DNA of 64,000 nt from Phycisphaerae bacterium (GTDB lineage: Bacteria; Planctomycetota; Phycisphaerae; SM23-33): positions 6,781 to 70,780 of the forward strand of contig PUND01000134.1 in NCBI GenBank assembly GCA_003551645.1. The letters run 5' to 3'. Below the pieces are notes generated by a model. It searched no databases, had not been told where the DNA came from, and worked only from the letters and a program-made list of their open reading frames with translations. Numbering within the stretch: the first letter of the stretch is position 1; each line of letters starts with the position of its first letter. Below are positions 1 through 22,199 of the stretch, in pieces. The translations under genes and the position numbers were made by a program.

Positions 1-2928
1 GAAGACGAAATGGAGCATTGGGTCTGGCGGCAGAACCGCGAGGGGGTGAATGTCGCGCTGGGTCCGCTGGGGGCGAGGATGGAGTCGGAAGACTTCCCCG
101 CCTCCCGTTTGCCGGAGCTGCATGACGGCAGGATAGACAGAAGTGCCCGGCGGCTGGAAACGGGGGAATACCGGCTGTTCCTTGCCGGCGCCGGGCCTGC
201 TCGGGTCAACCGTATCGTCTTCGCGGCCGAGAGGTGGAGGCGCCGGTTGCGGCTGGTGGTCGAGTCGGCCGACGGGCAGGGCGGTTATGAACGCATAGCA
301 GTTATTCGGGATGTCGAGCTGGACGAGCCGCACCTGAGGGTCCTGGAGTTCGACCCGATAGACACCGAGGAGATCCGGCTGACGCTTGAGCTGACCGAAG
401 GCAGATGGCTGGGGATGGCCTTCCACGATATCCAGGTCTTCGAAGGCCCGCTGGCTGACAAGTCGGAGTCGGTGCTGTCGATCGGCGGAGCGATGATATC
501 CCGGTTGGAGTACGGCGGGTCGGTGTTCCATACCCACGACGTTCGCTCCGACGTCGGCCATCTGCTCACCCCGCCCGAAGGCAGGAACTTCTACGCAAGG
601 AGTCGGCGCAGAGGCCAGCCGGCGTGGACGGAGCCGATAACGCTGGCTTTCCAGGCCAACCGCACGGCCCTTATAAGCTCCATCGAGCTTTGGCCGGCGG
701 ACCACGACGCCCGACGGAACTACATGCCCGGGCGCATCCGTCTGTCGGCCTCGCTGGCCCAGCCGTTCGACGGCTACGAGCCGGTTGGCGAGTTCGAGGT
801 CACCGAAGACGGCTCTCCCTGGCGGCTGGAGTTTGCCGAACCAGTCGAGGCGCGGTTCCTGCGTGTGGAGATGAAGACCCGCGGCGACATGCCGGAAGTC
901 AGCGTGGGCGAGCTTGTGATTCGCGAGGGGACCGGTCCTGGCTACGTCAGCGTGATGATCCGCGGCGATGGGGTCGAGTGGCGCAGGCGGCAGCAGCCCA
1001 CGCTTGTGGAGCTTCTGGGCGACGAGGCCGACAAGCTGCGGCGGATAGAGCCGGAAGCGCTTGCCGGCTCGGCCGTCGATGCGACGATGAACGAATGGAT
1101 TGGTTCGACGGTTGACGGCCCGAACGTAAGGCACGTTTACCGAATCGACGTTGACTACGACCCGCAAACCGAGGTGCCCGAACTGCAGGTCCACATGGCG
1201 CCTTTCCTGCGCGGGCGGGTGCGCTTGCTGGGTGCACAGGGCCAGGAGGTGGACTCTCCTTCGCCGGACGACCAGACCGGAACGTCGCTGCGATATCCCC
1301 CCGCGATTGAACCGGGGGAGTATCTGCTGGAGGTGACGTCGGCGCCGATTTATCTGTTCATGGGGTTCGACTCCAGCGGGAGCATGGGCCGGGCGCTGCC
1401 GATTACACACCGCACTCTGCCGGAGCTTACCGACAACCTCCCTGAAGGCGTGTACGTGGCTCTGGGCAACTCTCAGCGCGACCGGGAGACCGGCAAGCGT
1501 TTCACGCTTTTCAGCGAATACACAAACGACGGCGAGGCGCTTCGTCACGCCATGACCGAGCATAAAGAGCAAGGCAACACGATGTTCGTCACCGGCGGCG
1601 GGTCGGACTGGTACAACTTCCTGCGGGACATGCTGGAATGGGCCGACGAAAACACGCCGCCCGAGGCGGTGGGCGCGAAGTTGCTGGTGGCCGACGGCGT
1701 CGGCGCCGGCGACTACGGTACCATGTGGGACCGCCTGCATCTGAGCCGGCAGCGGCTGTACACGGTCGGCTGGGGCAGCAGGACGCTGCGGCTGGACTAC
1801 GTGGACCGCTCGACCGGCTGGACGGCCGCCAGGGGCCTGTTCAACGCCGCGTGGTATCGCGACGGGCGATACTTCGAGCCGCAGCGGGATGAGGAGATTG
1901 TCGAGACCTACCGGGCGGTCTTAGACGACATGCAGACCCCGGCCGACTATGCGCTGCGCGTCAATACCAGGCAAAGGCAAGCCGGTCTGCTGGCGACGTC
2001 GGCGCCGGAGGGCGAAAACCTGCCCATCCTCTTCGTGCTCGACGCCTCCGGAAGCATGATGATCGAGCTTGAGGGCAGGACCAGATTTGACGTGGCTAAG
2101 GACGTTATAGAAGACATGGTCAACAGCTTGCCGGATGGTTCGCACGTCGGCCTGCGCGTTTATGGTCATCGATACCGCGCCTACGGCGCCGAACGTGAAA
2201 GGGCCGCGGTCGATTCGGAGCTGCTAATACCAGTCGGCCCGCTGAACCGGTCGGAGTTCATCGCCACGGTTCGCGGCCTAAACGCGCGAGGAGCAACGCC
2301 GCTTGCCCATACCATCGAGCAGATTCCCGGCGACCTTCGCGGCGTCGAACGGCCCCGGGTGGTGGTCCTGACCGACGGGGTCGAGAGCTTCCGGCGGGAC
2401 CCGGTCGCCAAGTGCAGGGCGTTGCGGCGGCGGTTCCCGGATATGGAGTTCGCAGTAGTGGGCTTCATGATCGATTTGATGGTGGACAGGGAGAACCTGC
2501 GCGGCATGGCCGAGGCGGGCCAGGGCCTGTATTACAACGCGATGGATTCCGACTCGCTGGTGAGGTCGCTGGAGCAGGCGCTGAACCCGGTGATTCGCTA
2601 CGAGGTCGTGGACGGCCAGGGCAGGCGGGCGGCCGCCGGACGTTTCGGCGACAGCCACGAACTGCTACAGGGTCGATACACGCTGCGTGCGGCCATCGGC
2701 GACGGTGTGGCAGTATTGCCGCTGGACATAGAGCCGGGCCTGACCGTGGATATTGCGGCCTCGGATTTGCCGGCGCCGTCGGCCGATGAGGCGCCGATTG
2801 TGGCGGAGACCCGTGAGCCGGATGAGCCGGAGCCGGCCGCCCCGGCGAGGTTCTGCACACAATGCGGGCATCGGCTGATGGAAGGCGCCAGGTTCTGCAC
2901 GCAGTGCGGGTCGCCGAGGAGCAACTGA
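1..2928 (+). CDS. Large secreted/adhesin-like protein, 5' partial. N-terminal discoidin/F5-8-type-C-like repeats, two von Willebrand factor A domains and a C-terminal tandem zinc ribbon.
   Basis: The reading frame is open back to window position 1, so the gene probably starts upstream. Two vWA MIDAS-type motifs are visible (FMGFDSSGSMGRAL; LFVLDASGSMMIEL). Repeated segments of the kind ...IRLxxSL...ARFLRVEM are typical of discoidin/galactose-binding-like folds. The C-terminus reads FCTQCGHRLMEGARFCTQCGSP (CxxC-x9-CxxC). Confidence 0.6.
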   Translation, partial: EDEMEHWVWRQNREGVNVALGPLGARMESEDFPASRLPELHDGRIDRSARRLETGEYRLFLAGAGPARVNRIVFAAERWRRRLRLVVESADGQGGYERIAVIRDVELDEPHLRVLEFDPIDTEEIRLTLELTEGRWLGMAFHDIQVFEGPLADKSESVLSIGGAMISRLEYGGSVFHTHDVRSDVGHLLTPPEGRNFYARSRRRGQPAWTEPITLAFQANRTALISSIELWPADHDARRNYMPGRIRLSASLAQPFDGYEPVGEFEVTEDGSPWRLEFAEPVEARFLRVEMKTRGDMPEVSVGELVIREGTGPGYVSVMIRGDGVEWRRRQQPTLVELLGDEADKLRRIEPEALAGSAVDATMNEWIGSTVDGPNVRHVYRIDVDYDPQTEVPELQVHMAPFLRGRVRLLGAQGQEVDSPSPDDQTGTSLRYPPAIEPGEYLLEVTSAPIYLFMGFDSSGSMGRALPITHRTLPELTDNLPEGVYVALGNSQRDRETGKRFTLFSEYTNDGEALRHAMTEHKEQGNTMFVTGGGSDWYNFLRDMLEWADENTPPEAVGAKLLVADGVGAGDYGTMWDRLHLSRQRLYTVGWGSRTLRLDYVDRSTGWTAARGLFNAAWYRDGRYFEPQRDEEIVETYRAVLDDMQTPADYALRVNTRQRQAGLLATSAPEGENLPILFVLDASGSMMIELEGRTRFDVAKDVIEDMVNSLPDGSHVGLRVYGHRYRAYGAERERAAVDSELLIPVGPLNRSEFIATVRGLNARGATPLAHTIEQIPGDLRGVERPRVVVLTDGVESFRRDPVAKCRALRRRFPDMEFAVVGFMIDLMVDRENLRGMAEAGQGLYYNAMDSDSLVRSLEQALNPVIRYEVVDGQGRRAAAGRFGDSHELLQGRYTLRAAIGDGVAVLPLDIEPGLTVDIAASDLPAPSADEAPIVAETREPDEPEPAAPARFCTQCGHRLMEGARFCTQCGSPRSN

Positions 2929-2996
2929 CGGTTGCCGGCCATGTCGGTGGCCCGGATGGTGCGTCGCCTTGCAGGTCCGGGCCTCACCGGCCGCGC

Positions 2997-3032
2997 GGGG
3001 CGTCGGTGAACCTCGATATCGAGCTGGCCGAT
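2997..3032. repeat. Copy 1 of a perfect 36-bp direct repeat (ggggcgtcggtgaacctcgatatcgagctggccgat).
   Basis: An identical 36-mer occurs again at ~5233-5268, read by eye. Coordinates are +/-2 nt. Confidence 0.7.
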
Positions 3033-3206
3033 GCCGCAATCAACGCCCCGCAGGAGCTTCAGGCAAAGGTCCGCCGGCTGTACGCGCTTGCCCGTTAGGC
3101 CGTCGCCGAGGAATTGCAGCGTGATGGTCATATTACTCTCGGCTACCAGCGGCGATCGCCGCCGCCGGCGCTGGCGGGACAGGTTGCCCGATGAGTCCAA
3201 GGCCCA

Positions 3207-3695
3207 TCAAGAGGGCGATTTTTCGCCTGGTTCGATCTGCGAGGCGAAGCGCTCCAGCTCTGTCTTGTGCGAGCCGGCCTTGACGTCCTTTTGTCGGAAC
3301 CCGGCCGTGGCAGTGGCGTCGCAGGCGGCGACCCGCTCCATCTCCGCCAGCGTCTTGTCGATACCGGATGTGCGCGTGGTGCAGAACACCGCCAGGCGGG
3401 AGATATTACCCGCGGCATCCGTGAGATACGTCCGCACTGCCGTGCACATGGTGTTCGCCCATACCGGCGTGCCGACGACGACCATCTCATAGTCGCCCGG
3501 GTCGTGAGACGGCGGGGCGATGGGTACGGCCTTTCGCAGGGCGGCATCCTTGCCGGCGGCGATATACCCCAGTTTGCCGCTGCGGCTCTTGGTGTCCTGA
3601 AGCTCCTCGACGTCCGCACCTAGCCGCTCGGCCAGTTCCGTTGCCACCTGGTGCGTAACCCCCGTCCTCGAGTAGTAAACCACCAGTGTTTTCAC
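3207..3695 (-). CDS. Flavodoxin-family protein.
   Basis: The N-terminus MKTLVVYYSRTGVTHQVATELAERLG is the classic flavodoxin FMN-binding start. The length of 162 aa fits the family. Confidence 0.6.
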   Translation of the reverse strand: MKTLVVYYSRTGVTHQVATELAERLGADVEELQDTKSRSGKLGYIAAGKDAALRKAVPIAPPSHDPGDYEMVVVGTPVWANTMCTAVRTYLTDAAGNISRLAVFCTTRTSGIDKTLAEMERVAACDATATAGFRQKDVKAGSHKTELERFASQIEPGEKSPS

Positions 3696-4026
3696 GGCCG
3701 TCCGTCCTTTCCGAGGCGATGGACCGAAGTCTCTGTCGGCGTTTTCCCATCCCTCGCGACGGCTGTCAAGGTCCGCGCCGCACAGGCCTCAACCAGCCAC
3801 GCTCGCTTGAGCCGGTATCATAAGCATACGGATCTGTGCAATTCCAGGACAACGGATTTTCGGCAACTCCCGCTATCGAGCGGGTTCTGGCAGATGGGCG
3901 GAATCGAGGTTGTGCATAATCGCGGTGGCGAGGGCCTGCAACGGCGTCGACGAGGGAGCTTGCGGCCGAACTTTCGGTCTTCGTGATTCCGGCGGTCCGC
4001 CTGCCCCGCCGAGGCCGGGCGCCGGC

Positions 4027-4073
4027 GCAAAACAACACCCCGCCGATGTCAGCGGGGCGTTTTTGTGTTTTGC
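4027..4073 (-). terminator. Bidirectional intrinsic terminator: a GC hairpin flanked by an A-tract and a T-tract, 25 nt downstream of the PEP-CTERM gene stop.
   Basis: The sequence is gcaaaacaacaCCCCGCcgatgtcaGCGGGGcgtttttgtgttttgc, a 6-bp GC stem with an 8-nt loop. A U-run follows on the + strand and the upstream A-tract gives a U-run on the - strand. Confidence 0.6.
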
Positions 4074-4096
4074 ATTTGCCTTGTCTTCGCGGCCGG

Positions 4097-4798
4097 CTAT
4101 CTCCGCTTACGCAGAAGCACACCCAGCCCGCCGATGCCCAGAAGACCCATCGTCGCCGGCTCGGGGATGACTCCCGCGTTGCCGGAGAAGGAGCTGTTTG
4201 CCGTGGCCTCTCCGGTCTCCGGGTCCGGCGTGATGTTCGTCAGCGTGAAGCTCATGTCCTCGACCGGCACGAGCTGGATATCCGCGCCGGCGGGAAATAT
4301 GTTCATCGCCTCCGCCAGGTCCAGGAATGCCTGGCCGGGTGTATAGTTCATGGCCCCGCCAATGGCCTCTTCCTCGCTTGATGCGGAGATAGCCGCACTG
4401 GAGGAACCGTCAACCGCCAGCACATGAGCACGTTTAAAATCACCGCCGACGATCAGATCCCCCTCGCTGTCCGTATAGCTGAATTCGCCATCGAAGTAGA
4501 GGATGTTGCCGATTCCGACTTCCTCGAAGTCGACCTGCTCGGCCCAGAAGTCAAAATGGGCGTCGCTGAACGTGGTCACTGTGGGGTCGGCGTCGAACTG
4601 GACGGTGAGGTCCACCAGCGCATCTGCAGTGAGCGTCGGATCACCAACGCCATCGTCACTGTAGAGAAACATCTGCTGTGGATCGGCGGTATTGACGTCG
4701 AATCCGAAGGTTACCGGAATTACGTCGCCAAGGGCGTCGCCGCCAATAGCGCAAACCAATACGGTCGCTAGTCCGACTTTGAGCCAAGTCGAAGACAT
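4097..4798 (-). CDS. PEP-CTERM sorting-domain secreted protein, a putative exosortase substrate.
   Basis: The C-terminus reads ...GVIPEPATMGLLGIGGLGVLLRKRR, which is the PEP motif followed by a TM helix and a basic tail. The N-terminal signal peptide is MSSTWLKVGLATVLVCAIGG. The start was moved to the second ATG (M7 of the track ORF) because GGAGG sits 7 nt upstream of it. Confidence 0.75.
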   Translation of the reverse strand: MSSTWLKVGLATVLVCAIGGDALGDVIPVTFGFDVNTADPQQMFLYSDDGVGDPTLTADALVDLTVQFDADPTVTTFSDAHFDFWAEQVDFEEVGIGNILYFDGEFSYTDSEGDLIVGGDFKRAHVLAVDGSSSAAISASSEEEAIGGAMNYTPGQAFLDLAEAMNIFPAGADIQLVPVEDMSFTLTNITPDPETGEATANSSFSGNAGVIPEPATMGLLGIGGLGVLLRKRR

Positions 4799-4867
4799 TT
4801 GAACTCCTCCTATCATGTTAGCTGAGCGATTACACGAAACGGCACTGAGCGTTATGCACGTAGAGTT

Positions 4868-4896
4868 TATATATCACGGCTTGTCCAATATGTCAA
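4868..4896 (-). promoter_or_regulatory. Consensus sigma70-type promoter (TTGACA, 17 nt spacer, TATATA) driving the PEP-CTERM gene. A GGAGG Shine-Dalgarno lies at ~4806-4811.
   Basis: The minus strand reads gtgcTTGACAtattggacaagccgtgaTATATAaactcta....ataGGAGGAGttcaaATG. The element is embedded in a ~300-bp AT-rich stretch (4800-5100) inside an otherwise high-GC genome. Confidence 0.55.
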
Positions 4897-5172
4897 GCAC
4901 AATTCCCCCGAATTTTGAAGTATTTCATAATTCTATTTCCTGCAAGGGTTTGCTGATTGCCTGTGCCGCTGTTGTCGCCTCTGTCAGCAGCGGGTAGATA
5001 AACAAATCAGCAACGTCATCATTGTTCAAAGCCCCTTGCAGATACGTAAATAAGCCCCAAAACACGCTATAACTATATGAGAAGGGGAGTTAGCGGTCCG
5101 GCCAGGGTATGCCGGGCGGTCTCGCGGCCGAACGGCTGTTGATCACTGCATAACAGGACGAAAGGGAGTGTC

Positions 5173-5277
5173 ATGATCCGCCTGGACGTCGGATTGAGCA
5201 GAAAAGTCGGCGAGCCGGACTTCGGCTCCCGAGGGGCGTCGGTGAACCTCGATATCGAGCTGGCCGATTTCTTCTGA
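5173..5277 (+). CDS. Small ORF of 34 aa (MIRLDVGLSRKVGEPDFGSRGASVNLDIELADFF) with a good Shine-Dalgarno. Its 3' part is the second copy of the 36-bp repeat.
   Basis: AAAGGGAG sits 4-5 nt upstream of the ATG. The peptide shares ...GASVNLDIELAD with the ORF at 2862-3098 through the repeat. Function is unknown. Confidence 0.35.
   Translation: MIRLDVGLSRKVGEPDFGSRGASVNLDIELADFF
5233..5268. repeat. Copy 2 of the perfect 36-bp direct repeat.
   Basis: It is identical to 2997-3032. The two copies flank the flavodoxin + PEP-CTERM segment. Confidence 0.7.
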
Positions 5278-5323
5278 GGATTTTTAGACGCCCTCTGAAA
5301 GATACACCCGCCAGCGGGATATT

Positions 5324-5623
5324 GTGCCCGCCGAGCGCCTGGCCGGGTGCAGCCCGTCCATCATCGGTGTGGGTGCGACAGGCAGACAGGTGGCCCTTCA
5401 GCTTGCGGCCATCGGCGTGCCACATCTGAAGATGATTAACTTCGATACCGTCGAGCAGGTCAACCGCGCCTCCCAGGGCTTTTTGGAAAACGACCTGGGC
5501 CGGGCCAAGGCGCGTGGTACCGAGGTGCTTTATCAAGCAGTAGCCCTGGTCCTGGAATCGGTAACCTCACAAGACGCCTTTGGCTGGTTCGAACCGTGCG
5601 GATACCGCCAGATAAAGGGTTAA
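5324..5623 (+). pseudogene. Truncated ThiF/MoeB/E1-like adenylyltransferase fragment of 99 aa.
   Basis: IIGVGATGRQVALQLAAIGVPHLKMINFDTVEQVNRASQGF matches the E1 Rossmann motif (GxGxxG ... LaraGVG.l.lvDfD.Ve.SNLnRQ). The ORF stops after ~100 aa, 6 nt before the convergent 879-aa gene. Full ThiF-family proteins are 250 aa or longer. Confidence 0.55.
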
Positions 5624-5628
5624 CTGCT

Positions 5629-8268
5629 CTAGCCGCCTCGATAGCACACCGCCCGCTGCTGCATCGCGTCGGCGTTGAGAGTAATGCCGGCATCAGGTGT
5701 GTCGATAACCCGGACGACCCGCGAAAAATCACCAGCACCCGGCAGCAGTTCCGCCAGGCGGTTTTCGCCGGTTTCCAGAAAGTCGCGGTTCAGCGCGTTG
5801 CCGTCGCGCTCGGGGAACAGCGCCACATAGAGGATGTCGCTTTCGACGAGGTCGTTGAAATAGTGCGTTCCCAGCGACACATCAGGTATGACCTCGCCTG
5901 TGGCGGTGACGATCTCACATAGCGCCGCGACGGTGTTTATTTCCGCGAAACTCGTCGGCACTCCCAGAGACGGCGTAGTGGTGCCCCATCTTCCCGGACC
6001 AACCAGCACCACCGCCTTGTCCTGAGCATCGTCGAGGTGCGCGAGCCGACCGACCAGCCTGGCGACTGAGTATTTATCCGCCTGTGTAAGCCGGGCGTAT
6101 GCTTCCGGAACGACGTAGATAAAGCGGTCTATTCGCTGCCGACGACTGCGGCCTATGACGGCGCCCGCGGCGCTTAGAACCAGGTCCCGCTCGGAAATAT
6201 CCGGTGGCAACGGAACGCTGCTGCCGCTGCCGGCGACCTGTAGCGGACGACACTGCACCAGGTTGATGCTCGGTTTATCACCTTCGAAAAAGTTGGCGGT
6301 GAACTCAACATCAACCGGGTAATCGTAGGCCGCCTCCAGGATGCTCAGCATCCCGCGCATGTCCTCCACGAAGCCGGTCGAATTGAGCAGTTTGTCGAAG
6401 TCCAGTATTCGGGCGGACTCGGCCGGTACGCCGGCCGACTTCGCACGGCGGCGAAGCTCGGGGTCTTCGGAGGCGAACAGATCAACCGGAAGCGACGAGC
6501 TTTCTCGCAGGACATCCTGAAACCGTCGCGTGACAAGCTGGTTGGCATGGAGGTCCAGCAGGTCCACCCGCCGCTGAGTGTGGTTGCGGGCCTCGTCGGT
6601 GTCCCCTTCGGGTCTGTGCCGCGGGGCGTTCAGTGCGACGATGCGGGTGTAGTCGTCGTCGGCGCGGTCCACCGCGCGAGTGCCCAGGCCGAACACCAGC
6701 CGCAGAAGCCCCGCTTCGGGGTCTATCCGCTCACTCCAGCGGTACGGGTTGAACGAAAGCCCCACTCCGGCGATGTGGGGGTAATACATATCACCGTGCA
6801 TCGAGCCGCTTACGCGCTGCACCAGAAGCGCCATCTGCTCGTCTTTGTCCAGCAGGCCGCGCTGTGCCCGGTAGCGAAGCGCCTTTTCGCTCATTGTGCT
6901 GGCGTAGATGGTCCTTACCGCCGAGGTGAAATCCTCCAGCCGACGGTCGCGAGAGCCCTGGTTGGCGCAGAAGACGCTCTCGTATTTGCCGGCGAATGCG
7001 TTTCCAAAGTTGTCTTCCAGCAGACTGCTTGAACGGACGATGATCGGGCTTTGCCCGAAGTAGTCCAGCATGTCGGCGAACTGCCTGCGGATATCGTCGG
7101 GGAAACCGCCTCGCAGAATACCCTGCCGGGCGCGCTCGGCGCCCTGGAGGAAGGTATCCGGATTCCTCTGCTGCTGGCGGACCCACCATATGCCGTTGCG
7201 GACCAGGAAGCTGTAAAACACGTCCGAGCCGATGTAGAAAGAATCGTGCGGTTCCAGTCGCTCCGTCCAGCGGTCGTCGTGGTTGCGGAGGATCGCACGG
7301 GCCAGCAGCATGCCGACGGCCTTTCCGCCGATAAGCCCGGTGCCAATCATCCTTCGCCCGACGGCCAGCACATCGCGAAGGTCCATGTGCCGCTCGATAA
7401 GCTCCGAGACCCGCAGCTCGCGCGACAGCACCATTCGCGCCAGCCGGCGGAATTGCTCAAGACCGTCCTGCCGCCCGCGCCGCCCGCTTTCGACATCTTT
7501 GAGTACGTCCTCGGCGGCCAGGAAGGTCCGCTCCCATACTCCGGCGCCTTCTCCGGAGACCAGCCGTCGCCAGGGCATGGTGGTGAGTATCTCGGCTATT
7601 GTCGCGCTTTGGGTGACGGGCATGAACTGCTCGCCGTCGCGCCTGTGCAGCATGTACATCGTCGGCGAGTGCCGCTGCTGGACCTTCAGCGGCTGGATGT
7701 ACAGTTGCGACTTGTGGCGGAAGACATCCACCAGAACCTGGGCCGTTTCGGCGATGGCCCCGGTGGCGTGGGCGGAGTGGTGGTTACGCAGCAGGGCGAA
7801 GTAGGCGACCGTCTCCATGTCGAACAGGTAAGGGCATGTAAGCATGAAGAAGTTGCCCAGCATCTGGTCGCTGTACCAGTCAACGGTCAGTTCCGAGAGG
7901 CAGTCGAAGACATAGAACGCCCCGCGTCCGGCCTGCTCGATAACACTGTGGACCTGGGTGAGAAAATGCTCGAAGCCGTCCTCCGGACGAAGCTCGTGCG
8001 TCTGGGCCGAAACACCGTCAGGCACGACCCGGCGATGCTTGGCGAAACGGAAATATATCAGCCGCCGTCCGCCGTCGCCGGCCGCCCGGCAGTACGGTCC
8101 GGTGAGGTCCGTGTAGTCGTCTATCGAATCGACCTGCCAGACGATGTTGTCTCCCGGGATTATCCCCCTGAGCACCCGGTCCAGCCCCTCCAGGCCTGTG
8201 CTGAGTCTCGCGTCGATTTGCGCCATCTTCCTGACCTCGTGTTTAGTGCCGCAGAAAATTCGGCTCAT
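5629..8268 (-). CDS. PEP/pyruvate-binding (PPDK_N ATP-grasp) domain protein with an extra ~270-aa N-terminal domain.
   Basis: The central region IGGKAVGMLLARAIL ... IVRSSSLLEDNFGNAFAGKYESV ... MALLVQRVSGSMHGDMYYPHIAGVGLSFNPY ... INLVQCRPL matches the pyruvate-phosphate-dikinase / PEP-synthase N-terminal nucleotide-binding domain. The N-terminus TGLEGLDRVLRGIIPGDNIVWQVDS resembles the RecA/KaiC GLDxxLgGGlP motif but has no Walker A. Confidence 0.6.
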   Translation of the reverse strand: MSRIFCGTKHEVRKMAQIDARLSTGLEGLDRVLRGIIPGDNIVWQVDSIDDYTDLTGPYCRAAGDGGRRLIYFRFAKHRRVVPDGVSAQTHELRPEDGFEHFLTQVHSVIEQAGRGAFYVFDCLSELTVDWYSDQMLGNFFMLTCPYLFDMETVAYFALLRNHHSAHATGAIAETAQVLVDVFRHKSQLYIQPLKVQQRHSPTMYMLHRRDGEQFMPVTQSATIAEILTTMPWRRLVSGEGAGVWERTFLAAEDVLKDVESGRRGRQDGLEQFRRLARMVLSRELRVSELIERHMDLRDVLAVGRRMIGTGLIGGKAVGMLLARAILRNHDDRWTERLEPHDSFYIGSDVFYSFLVRNGIWWVRQQQRNPDTFLQGAERARQGILRGGFPDDIRRQFADMLDYFGQSPIIVRSSSLLEDNFGNAFAGKYESVFCANQGSRDRRLEDFTSAVRTIYASTMSEKALRYRAQRGLLDKDEQMALLVQRVSGSMHGDMYYPHIAGVGLSFNPYRWSERIDPEAGLLRLVFGLGTRAVDRADDDYTRIVALNAPRHRPEGDTDEARNHTQRRVDLLDLHANQLVTRRFQDVLRESSSLPVDLFASEDPELRRRAKSAGVPAESARILDFDKLLNSTGFVEDMRGMLSILEAAYDYPVDVEFTANFFEGDKPSINLVQCRPLQVAGSGSSVPLPPDISERDLVLSAAGAVIGRSRRQRIDRFIYVVPEAYARLTQADKYSVARLVGRLAHLDDAQDKAVVLVGPGRWGTTTPSLGVPTSFAEINTVAALCEIVTATGEVIPDVSLGTHYFNDLVESDILYVALFPERDGNALNRDFLETGENRLAELLPGAGDFSRVVRVIDTPDAGITLNADAMQQRAVCYRGG

Positions 8269-8271
8269 ATG

Positions 8272-8529
8272 TTAACTGCCGAGGCGCCTCGTACGCGCGG
8301 GAAAAAAGCGCTTCCGTTTTGATCGGTTGGCTTGCCGGGAAACTCCCTGTCGCATGCGGTGGCGCTGTTCTTGGGTTGCCTCGGCCAGGGGCGCCGGGTC
8401 GTCGCGAGGGCAAACTGCTTCCGGCGTGATCGTCCACTCGCCCCAGTCGAAATCATGCTCAATCCAACCGGCCTCATAGACGTAGCCGACGAACTGCTGC
8501 GCCGGTTGGGAAAGCCAGTAGTGGGGCAT
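8272..8529 (-). CDS. Small 85-aa Trp/Tyr-rich hypothetical protein, probably co-transcribed with the PPDK_N protein.
   Basis: Its stop is 3 nt from the start codon of the 879-aa gene on the same strand. The composition looks protein-like (HYWLSQPAQQFVGYVYEAGWIEHDFDWGEWTI). No family was recognised. Confidence 0.35.
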   Translation of the reverse strand: MPHYWLSQPAQQFVGYVYEAGWIEHDFDWGEWTITPEAVCPRDDPAPLAEATQEQRHRMRQGVSRQANRSKRKRFFPARTRRLGS

Positions 8530-8869
8530 AGTGAAGACCCCCGGTTTGGTCTTTGCCGGTGAGACCCATTGACCAAAGCTGCCGCCGGGTTCTTCCAGGC
8601 GCGGCAGGAACGTCGCCAGCCCATCACAAGCTGACCACCCACTCTCGCCTCCTGGCCGTGCTTCAGGAGGCGAGGCGAGAGGATAAGGGTCACGAGCTGC
8701 TTTTCACCCCCCGGCCTTCGCGGAAATACCCCGAAGGCGGCAGGTTAAACGCACCTCAGCGGCGAGTCGCCAAATCGGGACAAAACCGGGACAATCGGGG
8801 CGCACAAAAATGCCGACATGTCGCAAGAACTGTGTTTGTTACGCCTTACGAACGCCGGCTCTTTTGTAA

Positions 8870-8956
<87 letters not shown>

Positions 8957-9283
8957 ATGAAAGGCATTGTACGGGTGTTTGTTCTGGCTGGCAACCGAGC
9001 AGCGGGCGACGTTAATGTCGTACTTGCAGATGATGGGCGTCAGTGTGGTCCGCGGCCGCTACAGCCATCGCCGCCCCGGCCGCGGAAGTGAGCGACAGAA
9101 CGGTCACGTGACGGTCGCCGCAACGAATGATGCCGGCCGGTTGCCGCACGGTTCGGAGGAGCCGATTAGAAGTGCTGAACTTGCACAGCCCGTTGGTACG
9201 ATTTAAACTATGGTAGGCAATGCCGTGCCCGGCGAATTTGTCCGATACTATAGCGCCGTCGGCGTGTTCAAAGCACAGTCCCG

Positions 9284-10417
9284 ATGTGCTCGGCCCGGGC
9301 GGCGGAGACCGCGATGACCAACGTAAGCATTTTTGAAGCGACGGTAGAGCACTTCCTCGCGCCTATCATGTCTTACATGCGCGATCCGGATATCTCGGAG
9401 ATCATGGTCAACGCTCCGGACGAGATATACATCGAGCGTCAGGGCCGCGTAGAGAAGACCGACGCCCGCTTCGACGACGAGGAGGCCCTGCTGGCGGCGG
9501 TCAAAAACGTGCTCCAGTACACCGGCAAGCAGGTGTCCCAGCAGCAGCCGCTGGTGGATTCGCGCCTTCCGGACGGCAGCCGTGTTCATGTCATCCTGAG
9601 ACCGCTGTGCCGGACCAGCACTGTGATGTGCATCCGCAAGTTCGCCAAGACCCTGCTGGACGCCGACCGCCTGCTGGAGCTTGGCTCATGGACGCCGGAG
9701 ATGATGGGCTATCTGCGAGTCTGCGTGCAGGGCGCGAAGAACATACTGCTGGCCGGCGGAACCAGCAGCGGAAAGACCTCGTTGCTGAATGTGCTGAGCG
9801 GTTTCGTGCCCGACGACCAGCGGGTTGTGGTGATAGAGGACTCCGCCGAGCTTGATTTTCAGAAGCCGCACGTGCTGTCGCTGGAGAGCCGCCCGCCGGA
9901 CCGCTGGGGCAGGGGCGAGGTGACGATACGCGAGTTGTTCCGCTCGGCCCTTCGCCTGCGGCCGGACAGGGTGATTATCGGGGAGGTCCGCGGCGGCGAG
10001 GCCCTGGACGTGATACAGGCGATGACCTCCGGACACGCCGGCAGCATGACCACGCTGCACGCCACCGGGGGGCTGGACGCCCTGAACCGCCTGGAGACGC
10101 TGGCGATGATGTCCACGGTGGAGCTGCCGCTGCACGCCTTGCGGGCGCAGATCGCCTCGGCCATCGACGTGCTGGTGCAGGTCACGCGATTCCCGGACGG
10201 CAGGCGGATGGTGACGGGGTCTTCGGAAGTGCTTCCGCTGGGGGATGATGGAAAATATCGCATTCAGGAGATATTCCGATACGAGCCGCCCGCGGCCGGC
10301 GGAGAGGACCGTCTGACGTGGACCGGTCAGAAATCCCTTTTCGCCGATCAGGCGAGCATTCGCAAGCTCCGCGAACATTGGGGCCAGGCGGGGTTCGTAT
10401 TCGGGGGTGAAATGTAG
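9284..10417 (+). CDS. cpaF: CpaF/TadA-family Tad pilus ATPase, short form without an N-terminal accessory domain.
   Basis: Walker A reads [15 protein letters not shown]. The family regions DPDISEIMVNAPDEIYIERQG and ...DRVIIGEVRGGEALDVIQAMTSGHAGSMTTLHA are present. An alternative start lies at 9314 (MTNV..., preceded by GGAG). Confidence 0.8.
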   Translation: MCSARAAETAMTNVSIFEATVEHFLAPIMSYMRDPDISEIMVNAPDEIYIERQGRVEKTDARFDDEEALLAAVKNVLQYTGKQVSQQQPLVDSRLPDGSRVHVILRPLCRTSTVMCIRKFAKTLLDADRLLELGSWTPEMMGYLRVCVQGAKNILLAGGTSSGKTSLLNVLSGFVPDDQRVVVIEDSAELDFQKPHVLSLESRPPDRWGRGEVTIRELFRSALRLRPDRVIIGEVRGGEALDVIQAMTSGHAGSMTTLHATGGLDALNRLETLAMMSTVELPLHALRAQIASAIDVLVQVTRFPDGRRMVTGSSEVLPLGDDGKYRIQEIFRYEPPAAGGEDRLTWTGQKSLFADQASIRKLREHWGQAGFVFGGEM

Positions 10418-10421
10418 TACA

Positions 10422-10619
10422 ATGAACGTGGATAGAATGCCTGGTGGAATACGGAAAAAACGGCTTGCCGAGGACCAGTCGGGGCAGACCACCATTGAGT
10501 GGGTGCTGCTGCTGGGCGCTTTCGGTATTCCCATGGTGTACATGATGGTGCTGCTGCTGGCCACGCTGAGCGAGCACTACCGCATGGTGACTTTTATTCA
10601 GACGCTACCGCTGCCCTGA
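10422..10619 (+). CDS. flp: Flp-family type IVb pilin (paralog 1).
   Basis: The leader is followed by G/QTTIEWVLLLGAFGI, an Flp cleavage-site motif G/xxxxE(Y/W) plus a hydrophobic helix. Start ATGs at 10407, 10422 and 10437 are all possible. Confidence 0.6.
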   Translation: MNVDRMPGGIRKKRLAEDQSGQTTIEWVLLLGAFGIPMVYMMVLLLATLSEHYRMVTFIQTLPLP

Positions 10620-10677
10620 CGGGCCGACGGGCGGCGGGCGAGCCATACTGGTCGGCCCGGGAACGGATGGTTGATTC

Positions 10678-10887
10678 ATGAGACAGACAGGAAGCATAAC
10701 CCAGCGGCTCAAGGCCCTGCATCGCGACGAACGTGGCGCGGACATGGTGGAGTACATCCTGCTGATAGCGGCGGTGGCGCTGCCGCTGCTGGCGGTGCTG
10801 ATCTTCTTCTGGCGTGATATCTCCGAGCGCGTCAGCTCGCTTTGGCGCGACGTGTGGGGCGACGCCGAAGAAGGCATGCCTCGCTGA
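10678..10887 (+). CDS. flp: Flp-family type IVb pilin (paralog 2).
   Basis: ERGADMVEYILLIAAVALPLLAVLIF is the canonical G/xxxVEY Flp motif plus a hydrophobic stretch. Length is 69 aa. Confidence 0.75.
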   Translation: MRQTGSITQRLKALHRDERGADMVEYILLIAAVALPLLAVLIFFWRDISERVSSLWRDVWGDAEEGMPR

Positions 10888-10919
10888 GCACTGACCGCTC
10901 GGGCTGAGGTGAACCGTCT

Positions 10920-11492
10920 ATGCCGCCGCTAGCGGAGATGTGGCCGTTCGCGGTGCTGGGTGTGGTGGTGGTCGTGGCGGCCATTTCCGACGTCCGCACC
11001 GGAAGGGTCCCGAACGCTGTTACTTACCCGGCCATCGCCGTAGGGCTTCTGGCACACACGCTGCTGGGAGGCATGCGCGGCGAAGGCCCGGGGATCGGTC
11101 TGTACGCGTCGGCGGCGGGTCTGGCTGCGGGCTTTCTGCCGATGCTGGTGGTGTGGCTGGCCGGCGGCATCGGCGGCGGCGACGCGAAGCTCATGGCCGC
11201 GGTCGGGGCGCTGACCGGCTGGCGGTTCGCCTTGTCGGCGCTGTTTTATGGCCTTGTCGTGGCGGTGGTCCTGGCGCTGATAGTGATGGTGCGAAAGCGC
11301 ATCGTGCGCCGGACGCTGCGACGATTGTTCGGTTTTCTGGTGCTTTTGCTGACGCCCTCCAAACCGGCGGATCCAGCCGCCGAGGGAAGCGAGAAAATAC
11401 CGTTCGCGCTGGCGCTTTGCATAGGCGCCGGGGCGGCGCTGGCCGAGGTGGTTATGCGAGGCCAGCACGCTATGAAACTGCTGGGCCTCTGA
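10920..11492 (+). CDS. cpaA: Prepilin peptidase CpaA/TadV (A24 family).
   Basis: The N-terminus is polytopic, and ISDVRTGRVPN is the conserved D...R.IPN motif of A24 peptidases. A second Asp region is present (GGGDAKLMAA). Confidence 0.75.
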   Translation: MPPLAEMWPFAVLGVVVVVAAISDVRTGRVPNAVTYPAIAVGLLAHTLLGGMRGEGPGIGLYASAAGLAAGFLPMLVVWLAGGIGGGDAKLMAAVGALTGWRFALSALFYGLVVAVVLALIVMVRKRIVRRTLRRLFGFLVLLLTPSKPADPAAEGSEKIPFALALCIGAGAALAEVVMRGQHAMKLLGL

Positions 11493-20321: not shown

Positions 20322-22199
20322 ATGGAAATATGGGTATATAATCAGTACACCGACCAGCGCGACAGGGTCCAGGCCGACGGCGGAGAAATCAACATAGGCC
20401 GCGAGGACAACAACGACGTGGTCCTTCGCAGCCAGTTCGTGTCCCGACATCACGCCCGGATAGTCCGTGAGGGAAAGTCGTTCTTCATCGAGTCGCTTGG
20501 TCTTAACGGCACGATAGTGGCCAACGACCTTGTGCCCGCGCACCAGAAGCGGAAGCTCGGCTTTGGCGACGAGATCCGCATCGGCGAGTTCGTGCTGTAC
20601 ATGATGGAGCCGGCGGCCAGGCGGATCGGAACCGGCGAAAGGGCCGAGTCGCCGCGCAAGCGGGTTATCGACCTCGAGCAGCGGATGCACGCCGAACTGC
20701 TTGGGCTGCTGAACCTTCGCGTCACCGGCCAGCGCAGCGGCGCCGACGAACAGCACGTCAAGCTCATCAAGCGCCACCTGGCCGAGATTATCGAGAAACA
20801 CCGGGGCCAAATAGACGCCGAGATGACCGAGTATCTTGTCGGGGAATATCTCTGGCGTTGCGTGGTTACCGAGCTTGCCCGCCGTGCTACCGGCAAGCTG
20901 GTGTACAGCTACGGCTTCGAGGATACAGACGTGGTCTCGCCCCGCCACGAGGACGCGGTCAACAGGATGGTCGGCGACGTCATCAGCGCGTTTCCCCTGC
21001 GGCTTCGCCCGCATACCGTCAAGGATGACGTCGCGGCCGTCGAGAAGCACTGGGACGAGCAGTTGGAGTCGCTGAAAAACCGCATCAGCCCCGAATTGCG
21101 GGACTACATCGTCCGGAGGATGGTCTCAAAGGAGATCGAGGACGTCGTGCTCGGCTACGGGCCGCTGCAGGACCTGCTGGAGATGCCCAACGTCAACGAG
21201 ATTATGGTCGTGGGCAAGGACCGCATCTATGTCGAGAAGGACGGCGTTGTGCAGGACACCGGTAGGAGCTTTTTCACCGACGAGATCGTCCAGAGCGTCA
21301 TCGAACGTATCATAACGCCCATCGGCCGGCGTATAGACCGCTCCACCCCGCTGGTGGACGCCCGCCTGCCGGACGGCTCGCGGGTAAACGCCATCATCAA
21401 CCCGCTCAGTTTGTCCGGGCCGGTGCTGACCATCCGCAAATTCGCCCGCGTGCCGTTCACCATCGACGACCTCATCGAACAAGGCACGATGACCGAAAAC
21501 GTCGCCAATTTCCTCCGGGCTTGCGTCGTGGGGCGGAAGAACCTGATGATGTCTGGCGGAACCAGCAGCGGCAAGACCACCACGCTGAACGTGCTGGCGA
21601 ACTTTATCCCGCCGGAAGAGCGGATAATCACCATCGAGGAATCGGCCGAGCTGCAACTGCCACAGGAGCACTTGGTCCGCCTGGAGACACGCCCGGCGAA
21701 CATCGAGGGCCGCGGTGCCTACAGCATTCGCGAGCTGGTCCGCAACGCGCTGCGGATGCGTCCGGACCGGATTATCGTCGGCGAGGTTCGCGGGCCTGAG
21801 GCACTGGACATGCTCCAGGCGATGAACACCGGGCACGACGGCTCGCTGAGCACCATTCACGCGAACAATCCGGTCGATACACTGATGCGTATCGAGACGA
21901 TGGTGCTCATGGCGGTGGAGATGCCGGTTCGCGCCATCCGTGAGCAGATAGTCGCGGCGCTGGATCTGACCGTCCAGATAGCCCGGTTCGCCGGCGGGCA
22001 GCGGCGCGTAACCCACGTCTCGGAGATTACCGGAATCGACCCGGACACCGGACGAGCGATGACCGAGGATATCTTCGCCATGCGGTCGGCCGACGAAAGG
22101 GGACGAGGCGAGGGCAACATCAGGCACACCGGATACATACCCACCTTTGCCGACGAGCTGGTGGGTAAGGGTCTGCTGGATGTGGAGGTGTTTACGTGA
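20322..22199 (+). CDS. cpaF: CpaF/TadA-family Tad pilus ATPase with an N-terminal FHA domain.
   Basis: The FHA domain is [51 protein letters not shown]. Walker A is [15 protein letters not shown]. The family regions [31 protein letters not shown] are present. Confidence 0.85.

Follow-up and report, generated by a model that had tools for sequence, protein, structure and literature searches.

Decayed prophages, integrative elements and plasmids are recognised by scars of a characteristic kind: short pseudogene fragments with in-frame stops and internal deletions, located near synteny breakpoints and a tRNA gene, whose parent element occurs in multiple copies in related genomes. In Campbell-type integration products, the segment is bounded by exact direct repeats (attL and attR) whose recombination would restore an uninterrupted gene sequence. 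Insertion sequences (IS) and transposons leave a target-site duplication, i.e., a short direct repeat on either side of the inserted segment. Here, we describe a locus of a Phycisphaerae bacterium (contig PUND01000134.1) which resembles each of these systems in the features just named. It lies in a stretch of 64 kb, referred to as the window in the following, where two perfect copies of a 36-bp direct repeat bracket a flavodoxin gene and a PEP-CTERM protein gene. An earlier note on this DNA had taken the arrangement for an integrated or excisable element, or for an att-site duplication, whose joined ends would restore a small open reading frame (ORF). Our analysis leads to another reading: the two 36-bp copies probably mark the stretch where two truncated, dead remnants of a mobile-element gene's 5' third overlap, and would thus be a rearrangement scar.

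From the decayed-element scars, the locus differs in two respects. Its fragments overlap by 36 nt and are permuted around two intact, host-like genes, and its parent element has neither a name nor a model in Pfam, NCBIfam or PHROGs. From Campbell-type products it differs in that no recombinase was found among the ORFs scanned in 1-18 kb, the rebuilt gene is dead, and the outer flank is a remnant of the element itself; moreover, no empty site is known for this locus. From a target-site duplication it differs by the order of its parts, R-C-insert-N-R (R denoting the repeat, N and C the N-terminal and C-terminal parts of the small ORF), and a length of 36 bp would be long for such a duplication. 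Of the properties expected from an excisable element, the locus shows direct end repeats, but no recombinase among the ORFs scanned in 1-18 kb, and neither an intact restored gene nor a foreign composition. Similarly, of the properties that define the protein family described below, it shows a profile match to the N domain, but no full-length gene with a C domain followed by a PD-(D/E)XK nuclease gene.

Two overlapping fragments of one kind of gene

The repeat, GGGGCGTCGGTGAACCTCGATATCGAGCTGGCCGAT on the forward strand, is identical in its two copies at 36 of 36 positions (coordinates in Table 1), as the earlier note had stated, and no third match exists in the window even when three mismatches are allowed. 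It did not occur in any of 100 dinucleotide-preserving shuffles, and no exact match was obtained in JGI metagenome contigs. Alignment of the copies together with their flanks, which had been proposed as a check, confirms that the match is exact over 36 nt and reaches 39 nt if a single mismatch is admitted (CGC against CGA, either of which encodes arginine in the ORF frame). Outside the 39-nt stretch, the sequences are unrelated on either side. Copy 2 closes an ORF of 34 aa at 5173-5277 (MIRLDVGLSRKVGEPDFGSRGASVNLDIELADFF), and the frame of copy 1 runs on through AAINAPQELQAKVRRLYALAR to a TAG codon at 3096-3098. The N-terminal part in front of copy 2 and the in-frame C-terminal part behind copy 1 had thus been recognised correctly. 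The same is true for the layout, R-C...N-R, which is circularly permuted, holds the flavodoxin and PEP-CTERM genes between the copies, and is unlike a simple tandem duplication.

What the repeat encodes became apparent from a profile hidden Markov model (HMM) of a protein family to which the small ORF belongs. In a six-frame scan of the whole window, this profile matches in two places only, at 5143-5274 (profile positions 3-31, E 1.5e-15) and at 2826-3095 (positions 21-54, E 8e-11). With the repeat removed, the C piece alone still matches positions 35-66 with 29 bits, reading through the TAG codon. This codon falls inside the family alignment, in a column where other members carry Q, K, R, E, A or D, and the AVAEEL encoded beyond it still fits the family motif SVDxEL at invariant positions. 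The joined N+C peptide of 53 aa has end-to-end homologues, and their matches span the join, e.g., P0002 with 55% identity and 100% coverage. No remnant of the family's C domain was detected anywhere in the window by HMM scan, and no homologue of its PD-(D/E)XK partner lies near the fragments.

Judged by these homologies, the N and C pieces derive from one kind of gene, in which they are consecutive and overlap, and the joined 53-aa ORF is the first third of a family of 140-180 aa, that is, a pseudogene fragment rather than a gene. A circle would rebuild a truncated pseudogene and no small gene. Of the 53-aa ORF as proposed in the earlier note, the continuous family homology across the join holds; its standing as a complete reading frame does not, as the TAG codon is internal and the C domain is missing. 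The length of the repeat follows directly from the extent of the two remnants: one starts at codon 21 and the other ends at codon 32, so that 12 codons (36 nt) survive in both.

Two further candidates for the nature of the repeat were considered and rejected. A generic, REP-like dispersed repeat (REP, repetitive extragenic palindromic), named in the earlier note as the finding that would speak against a mobile element, is not what we see: the 64 kb hold two copies, even with three mismatches allowed, and the repeat codes for part of a family protein. Within the repeat, 12 bp form a perfect palindrome, CTCGATATCGAG, which includes an EcoRV site (3012-3023 and 5248-5259). It codes for L-D-I-E, the counterpart being L-E-L-E in most family members, and palindromes of this length class are not over-represented (22 in the window versus 26 in the shuffles), so it is not regarded as a notable signal.

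The DNA to the right of copy 2 belongs to the same kind of element. A fragment resembling ThiF (E1-like) begins within about 25 nt of the repeat and breaks off ahead of the neighbouring gene, whose stop codon is at 5629. It resembles the ThiF-like genes of two other loci (L011 and L017), which follow the family gene at a distance of about 2.6 kb. The series N-R-ThiF', where ThiF' stands for the fragment, has its parts in the same order and on the same strand as an intact element from which a middle part of about 2.5 kb had been deleted. As the right flank is a ThiF-like pseudogene fragment, the supposed attB would be an element remnant and no host site. Membership of the fragment in the PRTRC system was tried and rejected, with a TIGR03736 score of 15.8 bits against a cut-off of 144.75, and the intact module of L017 likewise gave no PRTRC match.

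The parent family and its intact elements

A profile search in 1.84 billion representative proteins returned 1429 family clusters (at 50% identity) with E<=1e-3. The proteins are typically 110-190 aa long, and the matched domain is N-terminal. A scan of species-representative genomes yielded 98 loci, nearly all of them in metagenome-assembled genomes (MAGs) of Planctomycetota (Phycisphaerae and Planctomycetia); a single genome often carries several copies. The family has no match in Pfam, NCBIfam or PHROG, and no relatives were found among viral contigs. Intact members of 140-180 aa begin with an N domain (MLKLNAGFSRKVGEPNYGSRGASVNVELEVES...RIRxLFxLAxxSVDxEL), which is followed by a low-complexity linker and a conserved C domain (ATxSQVRAIxAI...LTxxEASxLIDxLK). 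The AlphaFold model of an intact member (mean predicted local distance difference test score, pLDDT, of 79.8, with 93-97 in the C domain) shows a beta-hairpin with a long helix, then a disordered linker, and a C domain built from three helices.

Gene context was counted over 85 loci. In 57 of them, a PD-(D/E)XK gene (PF12705, Cas4-like, phrog_69 exonuclease) follows directly 3' on the same strand. Upstream, 14 loci have an AAA ATPase gene; downstream, eight have a DnaN-like clamp gene at about 2 kb, and five have a same-strand ThiF-like gene at 2.5-3.4 kb. The module of L017 reads AAA ATPase, IS, DUF3150, DUF1257, a 161-aa protein, the family gene, PD-(D/E)XK, two small genes, ThiF and XRE. 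Transposases are often found near family loci. From gene order, multi-copy state and nearby transposases, this context looks like a mobile-element module; a literature search on elements with DUF3150 and ThiF turned up nothing useful.

With a Red-beta-like C-terminal domain and an adjoining exonuclease gene, the intact family resembles pairs of the lambda Red type. Its members appear to be small proteins whose C domain resembles Red-beta and which partner an exonuclease; an annealing role is putative. This comparison with lambda Red beta and lambda Exo (SynExo) concerns the intact family and not the fragments in the window.

Degenerate copies are also met elsewhere in the family. In L014, a complete Phycisphaerales MAG chromosome, a 5' family fragment of about 80 nt (4055-4138) lies 5.9 kb upstream of the main copy. 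It is 87% identical over 84 nt including the upstream ribosome-binding region, and 96% identical over the first 54 coding nt. The main copy itself (10001-10936) is fused in frame to the nuclease gene through a deletion. Truncated family copies also occur in L002 and L019. A different kind of interruption was observed in L058 (10001-11261), where the family gene is broken after about codon 69 by approximately 0.87 kb coding for a second, divergent C domain (ISEKQLGYARQL...LIDTLK), which may represent a domain duplication or swap.

Origin of the permuted layout

N-R and R-C are both native gene sequence, and hence two gene copies or a circular form of the gene must once have existed. We favour the former. 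Two copies in direct orientation would have arisen when this multi-copy element inserted twice or when about 2.2 kb were duplicated locally, and independent deletions would then have trimmed each copy. On the right, codons 1-32 are fused to the 5' end of the ThiF-like pseudogene, the outcome expected if one element copy had lost about 2.5 kb internally; the left fragment, reaching from codon 21 to about codon 62-85, is a remnant of its own. The perfect identity of the repeat is no obstacle to two separate origins. Among 25 within-genome pairs from 14 genomes, three are identical at 36 of 36 positions over the stretch equivalent to the repeat, and ten further pairs at 33-35 positions. The repeat would thus be a passive scar, although a rare loop-out of the 2.2 kb by a RecA-type process would still be conceivable; there is no indication of machinery specialised for excision.

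Several points speak against this history. Neither a second full copy nor an ancestral state was seen, and none of the genomes searched proved close enough to reveal the earlier arrangement, the loci compared including neither the source genome nor close relatives. The count and order of the deletions are inferred rather than observed. Only 12% of the paralogue pairs are perfectly identical over the stretch in question, and the permuted arrangement occurs in 0 of the other 85 loci. Finally, integration of a circle through R predicts the same sequence, so that anatomy alone cannot separate the two.

An origin from a single gene copy is unlikely. By a template switch resembling fork stalling and template switching (FoSTeS) or microhomology-mediated break-induced replication (MMBIR), some 130-200 nt would have been copied to a place 2.2 kb upstream, and a later deletion would have fused codon 32 to ThiF. 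Two events suffice for this. It would agree with the left fragment being short and sitting exactly at the junction of unrelated genes, and with the several breakpoints at the locus. On the other hand, there is no microhomology or parental sequence against which the switch could be checked, and its prediction is the same as that of two trimmed copies.

The idea closest to the earlier note is that of a 2.2-kb circle, made of N-R-C with the flavodoxin and PEP-CTERM genes, which integrated through R by means of a site-specific recombinase or RecA and may be excised again. R-C...N-R with exact 36-bp direct repeats is indeed the outcome of a Campbell-type integration, the join is native gene sequence, and the region is rearranged and has a tRNA-Ser gene at a distance of 3.6 kb. 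Nevertheless, we consider such a circle quite improbable. The segment lacks genes for an integrase, an excisionase, a transposase or replication, and a Pfam and NCBIfam scan of the main ORFs in 1-18 kb likewise revealed no such gene and no recombinase; the earlier note had already remarked that no integrase is visible. The gene restored by excision would be a truncated pseudogene. As attB, the circle would need a 36-bp remnant already fused to ThiF', i.e., more events than a scar of two dead copies, and the coding stretch is never an att-like duplicate in the 85 other loci.

The content of the segment does not favour a circle either. Both cassette genes are host-like in composition: their G+C content at third codon positions (GC3, Table 1) compares with 0.76-0.83 in the neighbouring genes, so the comparison of composition suggested in the earlier note gave no sign of a foreign origin, in GC or in GC3. 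An AT-rich part is limited to the spacer at 4817-5172, upstream of the PEP-CTERM gene, with 49% GC versus 64% GC in the window, and this spacer has no homology to the element loci. Flavodoxin and PEP-CTERM genes were also rejected as usual cargo of the element, as they do not stand beside the family gene in other genomes; the context of flavodoxin orthologues (L089 and L090) is unrelated and uninformative. With a dead rebuilt gene, an element remnant as flank, no recombinase in 1-18 kb and a host-like cassette, the interpretation as an integrated or excisable element or as an att-site duplication finds no support.

That the structure is in part a product of assembly is a further explanation to which we give little credence. 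The contig appears to stem from a MAG, and a repeat node with two ways in and two ways out would yield exactly such alternatives, indistinguishable by sequence alone, namely a tandem of two or more 2,236-bp units (R-C-X-N, with X for the cassette) collapsed to one, or a circle together with a linear L-R-ThiF' (L for the left flank), both threaded via the 36-mer node. Against this, 36 bp is less than the final k-mer length of most current metagenome assemblers, both junctions are clean sequence, and every variant would still require an L-R-ThiF' junction.

Red-type systems need about 36 nt of homology. It is most improbable, however, that the 2.2 kb genuinely loop out or can be amplified as a unit, with repeats made through short-homology recombination by the exonuclease-partner module of the element. 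The broken gene would then belong to an undescribed minimal annealase family of Planctomycetota elements, and the locus would be a record of what this family does to host genes. A target-site duplication by an IS or transposon is rejected because the order is permuted, R-C...N-R instead of N-R-insert-R-C, and neither end inverted repeats nor a transposase are present.

The surrounding breakpoints and the meaning of the probable scar

The coordinates of all features are collected in Table 1. A host gene for a VWA protein borders the left fragment on one side, the flavodoxin gene on the other; the VWA protein has no relatives in metagenome contigs. To the right lies the gene for a PEP/pyruvate-binding (PPDK_N) protein, with orthologues of 79-87% identity in three contigs. 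The surroundings of these orthologues are conserved, with dxs to one side and genes for a 235-aa protein, STAS, an RNase-HII-like protein, MscS and an aldo-keto reductase to the opposite side. The 64-kb window contains none of these neighbours, and synteny is therefore broken at about 5629 and about 8367. The island between these points, 5629-8367, consists of the PPDK_N gene and approximately 100 nt of its upstream region. A shared arrangement of the family gene and PPDK in L020 was considered and rejected, the PPDK-like gene there being a different paralogue of 1062 aa.

The main ORFs in 1-18 kb comprise the VWA, flavodoxin and PEP-CTERM genes, the ThiF fragment, PPDK_N, the DUF6508 fragment and Tad pilus genes. 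An Rfam scan returned the tRNA alone. Taken together, the locus is a mosaic of breakpoints.

Table 1. Features at the locus (positions in the window).
Feature	Position	Strand	Remarks
Repeat copy 1	2997..3032	+	family codons 21-32 (GASVNLDIELAD); sharp edge of homology to copy 2 at 2996/2997, or at 2993/2994 allowing one mismatch
Left pseudogene fragment	2997..3190	+	codon 21 to about 62, possibly to about 85 via the low-complexity linker; no C-terminal domain
Flavodoxin (Flavodoxin_4) gene	3207..3695	-	full length; best non-self homologue 62% identical; GC3 0.79
GC-rich hairpin	4038..4057		A-run before, T-run after; between the cassette genes; resembles a bidirectional terminator
PEP-CTERM protein gene	4097..4816	-	GC3 0.72
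Right pseudogene fragment	5160..5268	+	ribosome-binding region and family codons 1-32
Repeat copy 2	5233..5268	+	same codons 21-32; family homology stops at 5268/5269
ThiF-like (E1-like) pseudogene fragment	5270..5578	+	Pfam ThiF positions 16-77 only; in-frame TAG at 5285-5287, no start codon
PEP/pyruvate-binding (PPDK_N) gene	5629..8268	-	synteny island of 2.7 kb
DUF6508 gene fragment	8272..8529	-	profile positions 38-92 of 129; between PPDK_N gene and tRNA-Ser
tRNA-Ser(GGA)	8869..8957	-	only tRNA gene in the window

Apart from the locus itself, we note a stretch of 84 nt with 74% identity between 9713-9796 and 21513-21596, i.e., in two ORFs about 11.8 kb apart. The former encodes a T2SSE-type ATPase in a Tad-like pilus locus, and the window may carry two paralogues of this ATPase.

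From the biological side, the locus would be one more scar of mobile-element decay and rearrangement, with two ordinary genes and no sign of present mobility. It carries a caution for the interpretation of similar loci: perfect direct repeats which seem to rebuild an ORF can be the overlap of two truncated genes of a multi-copy element. The family that emerged as a by-product may matter more than the locus from which it was found, as it is large and has no match in Pfam, NCBIfam or PHROG. Together with the PD-(D/E)XK exonuclease, with which it is tightly paired, it may form a recombination module of Planctomycetota elements, and this candidate pair might serve for recombineering in a phylum in which genetic engineering is difficult.

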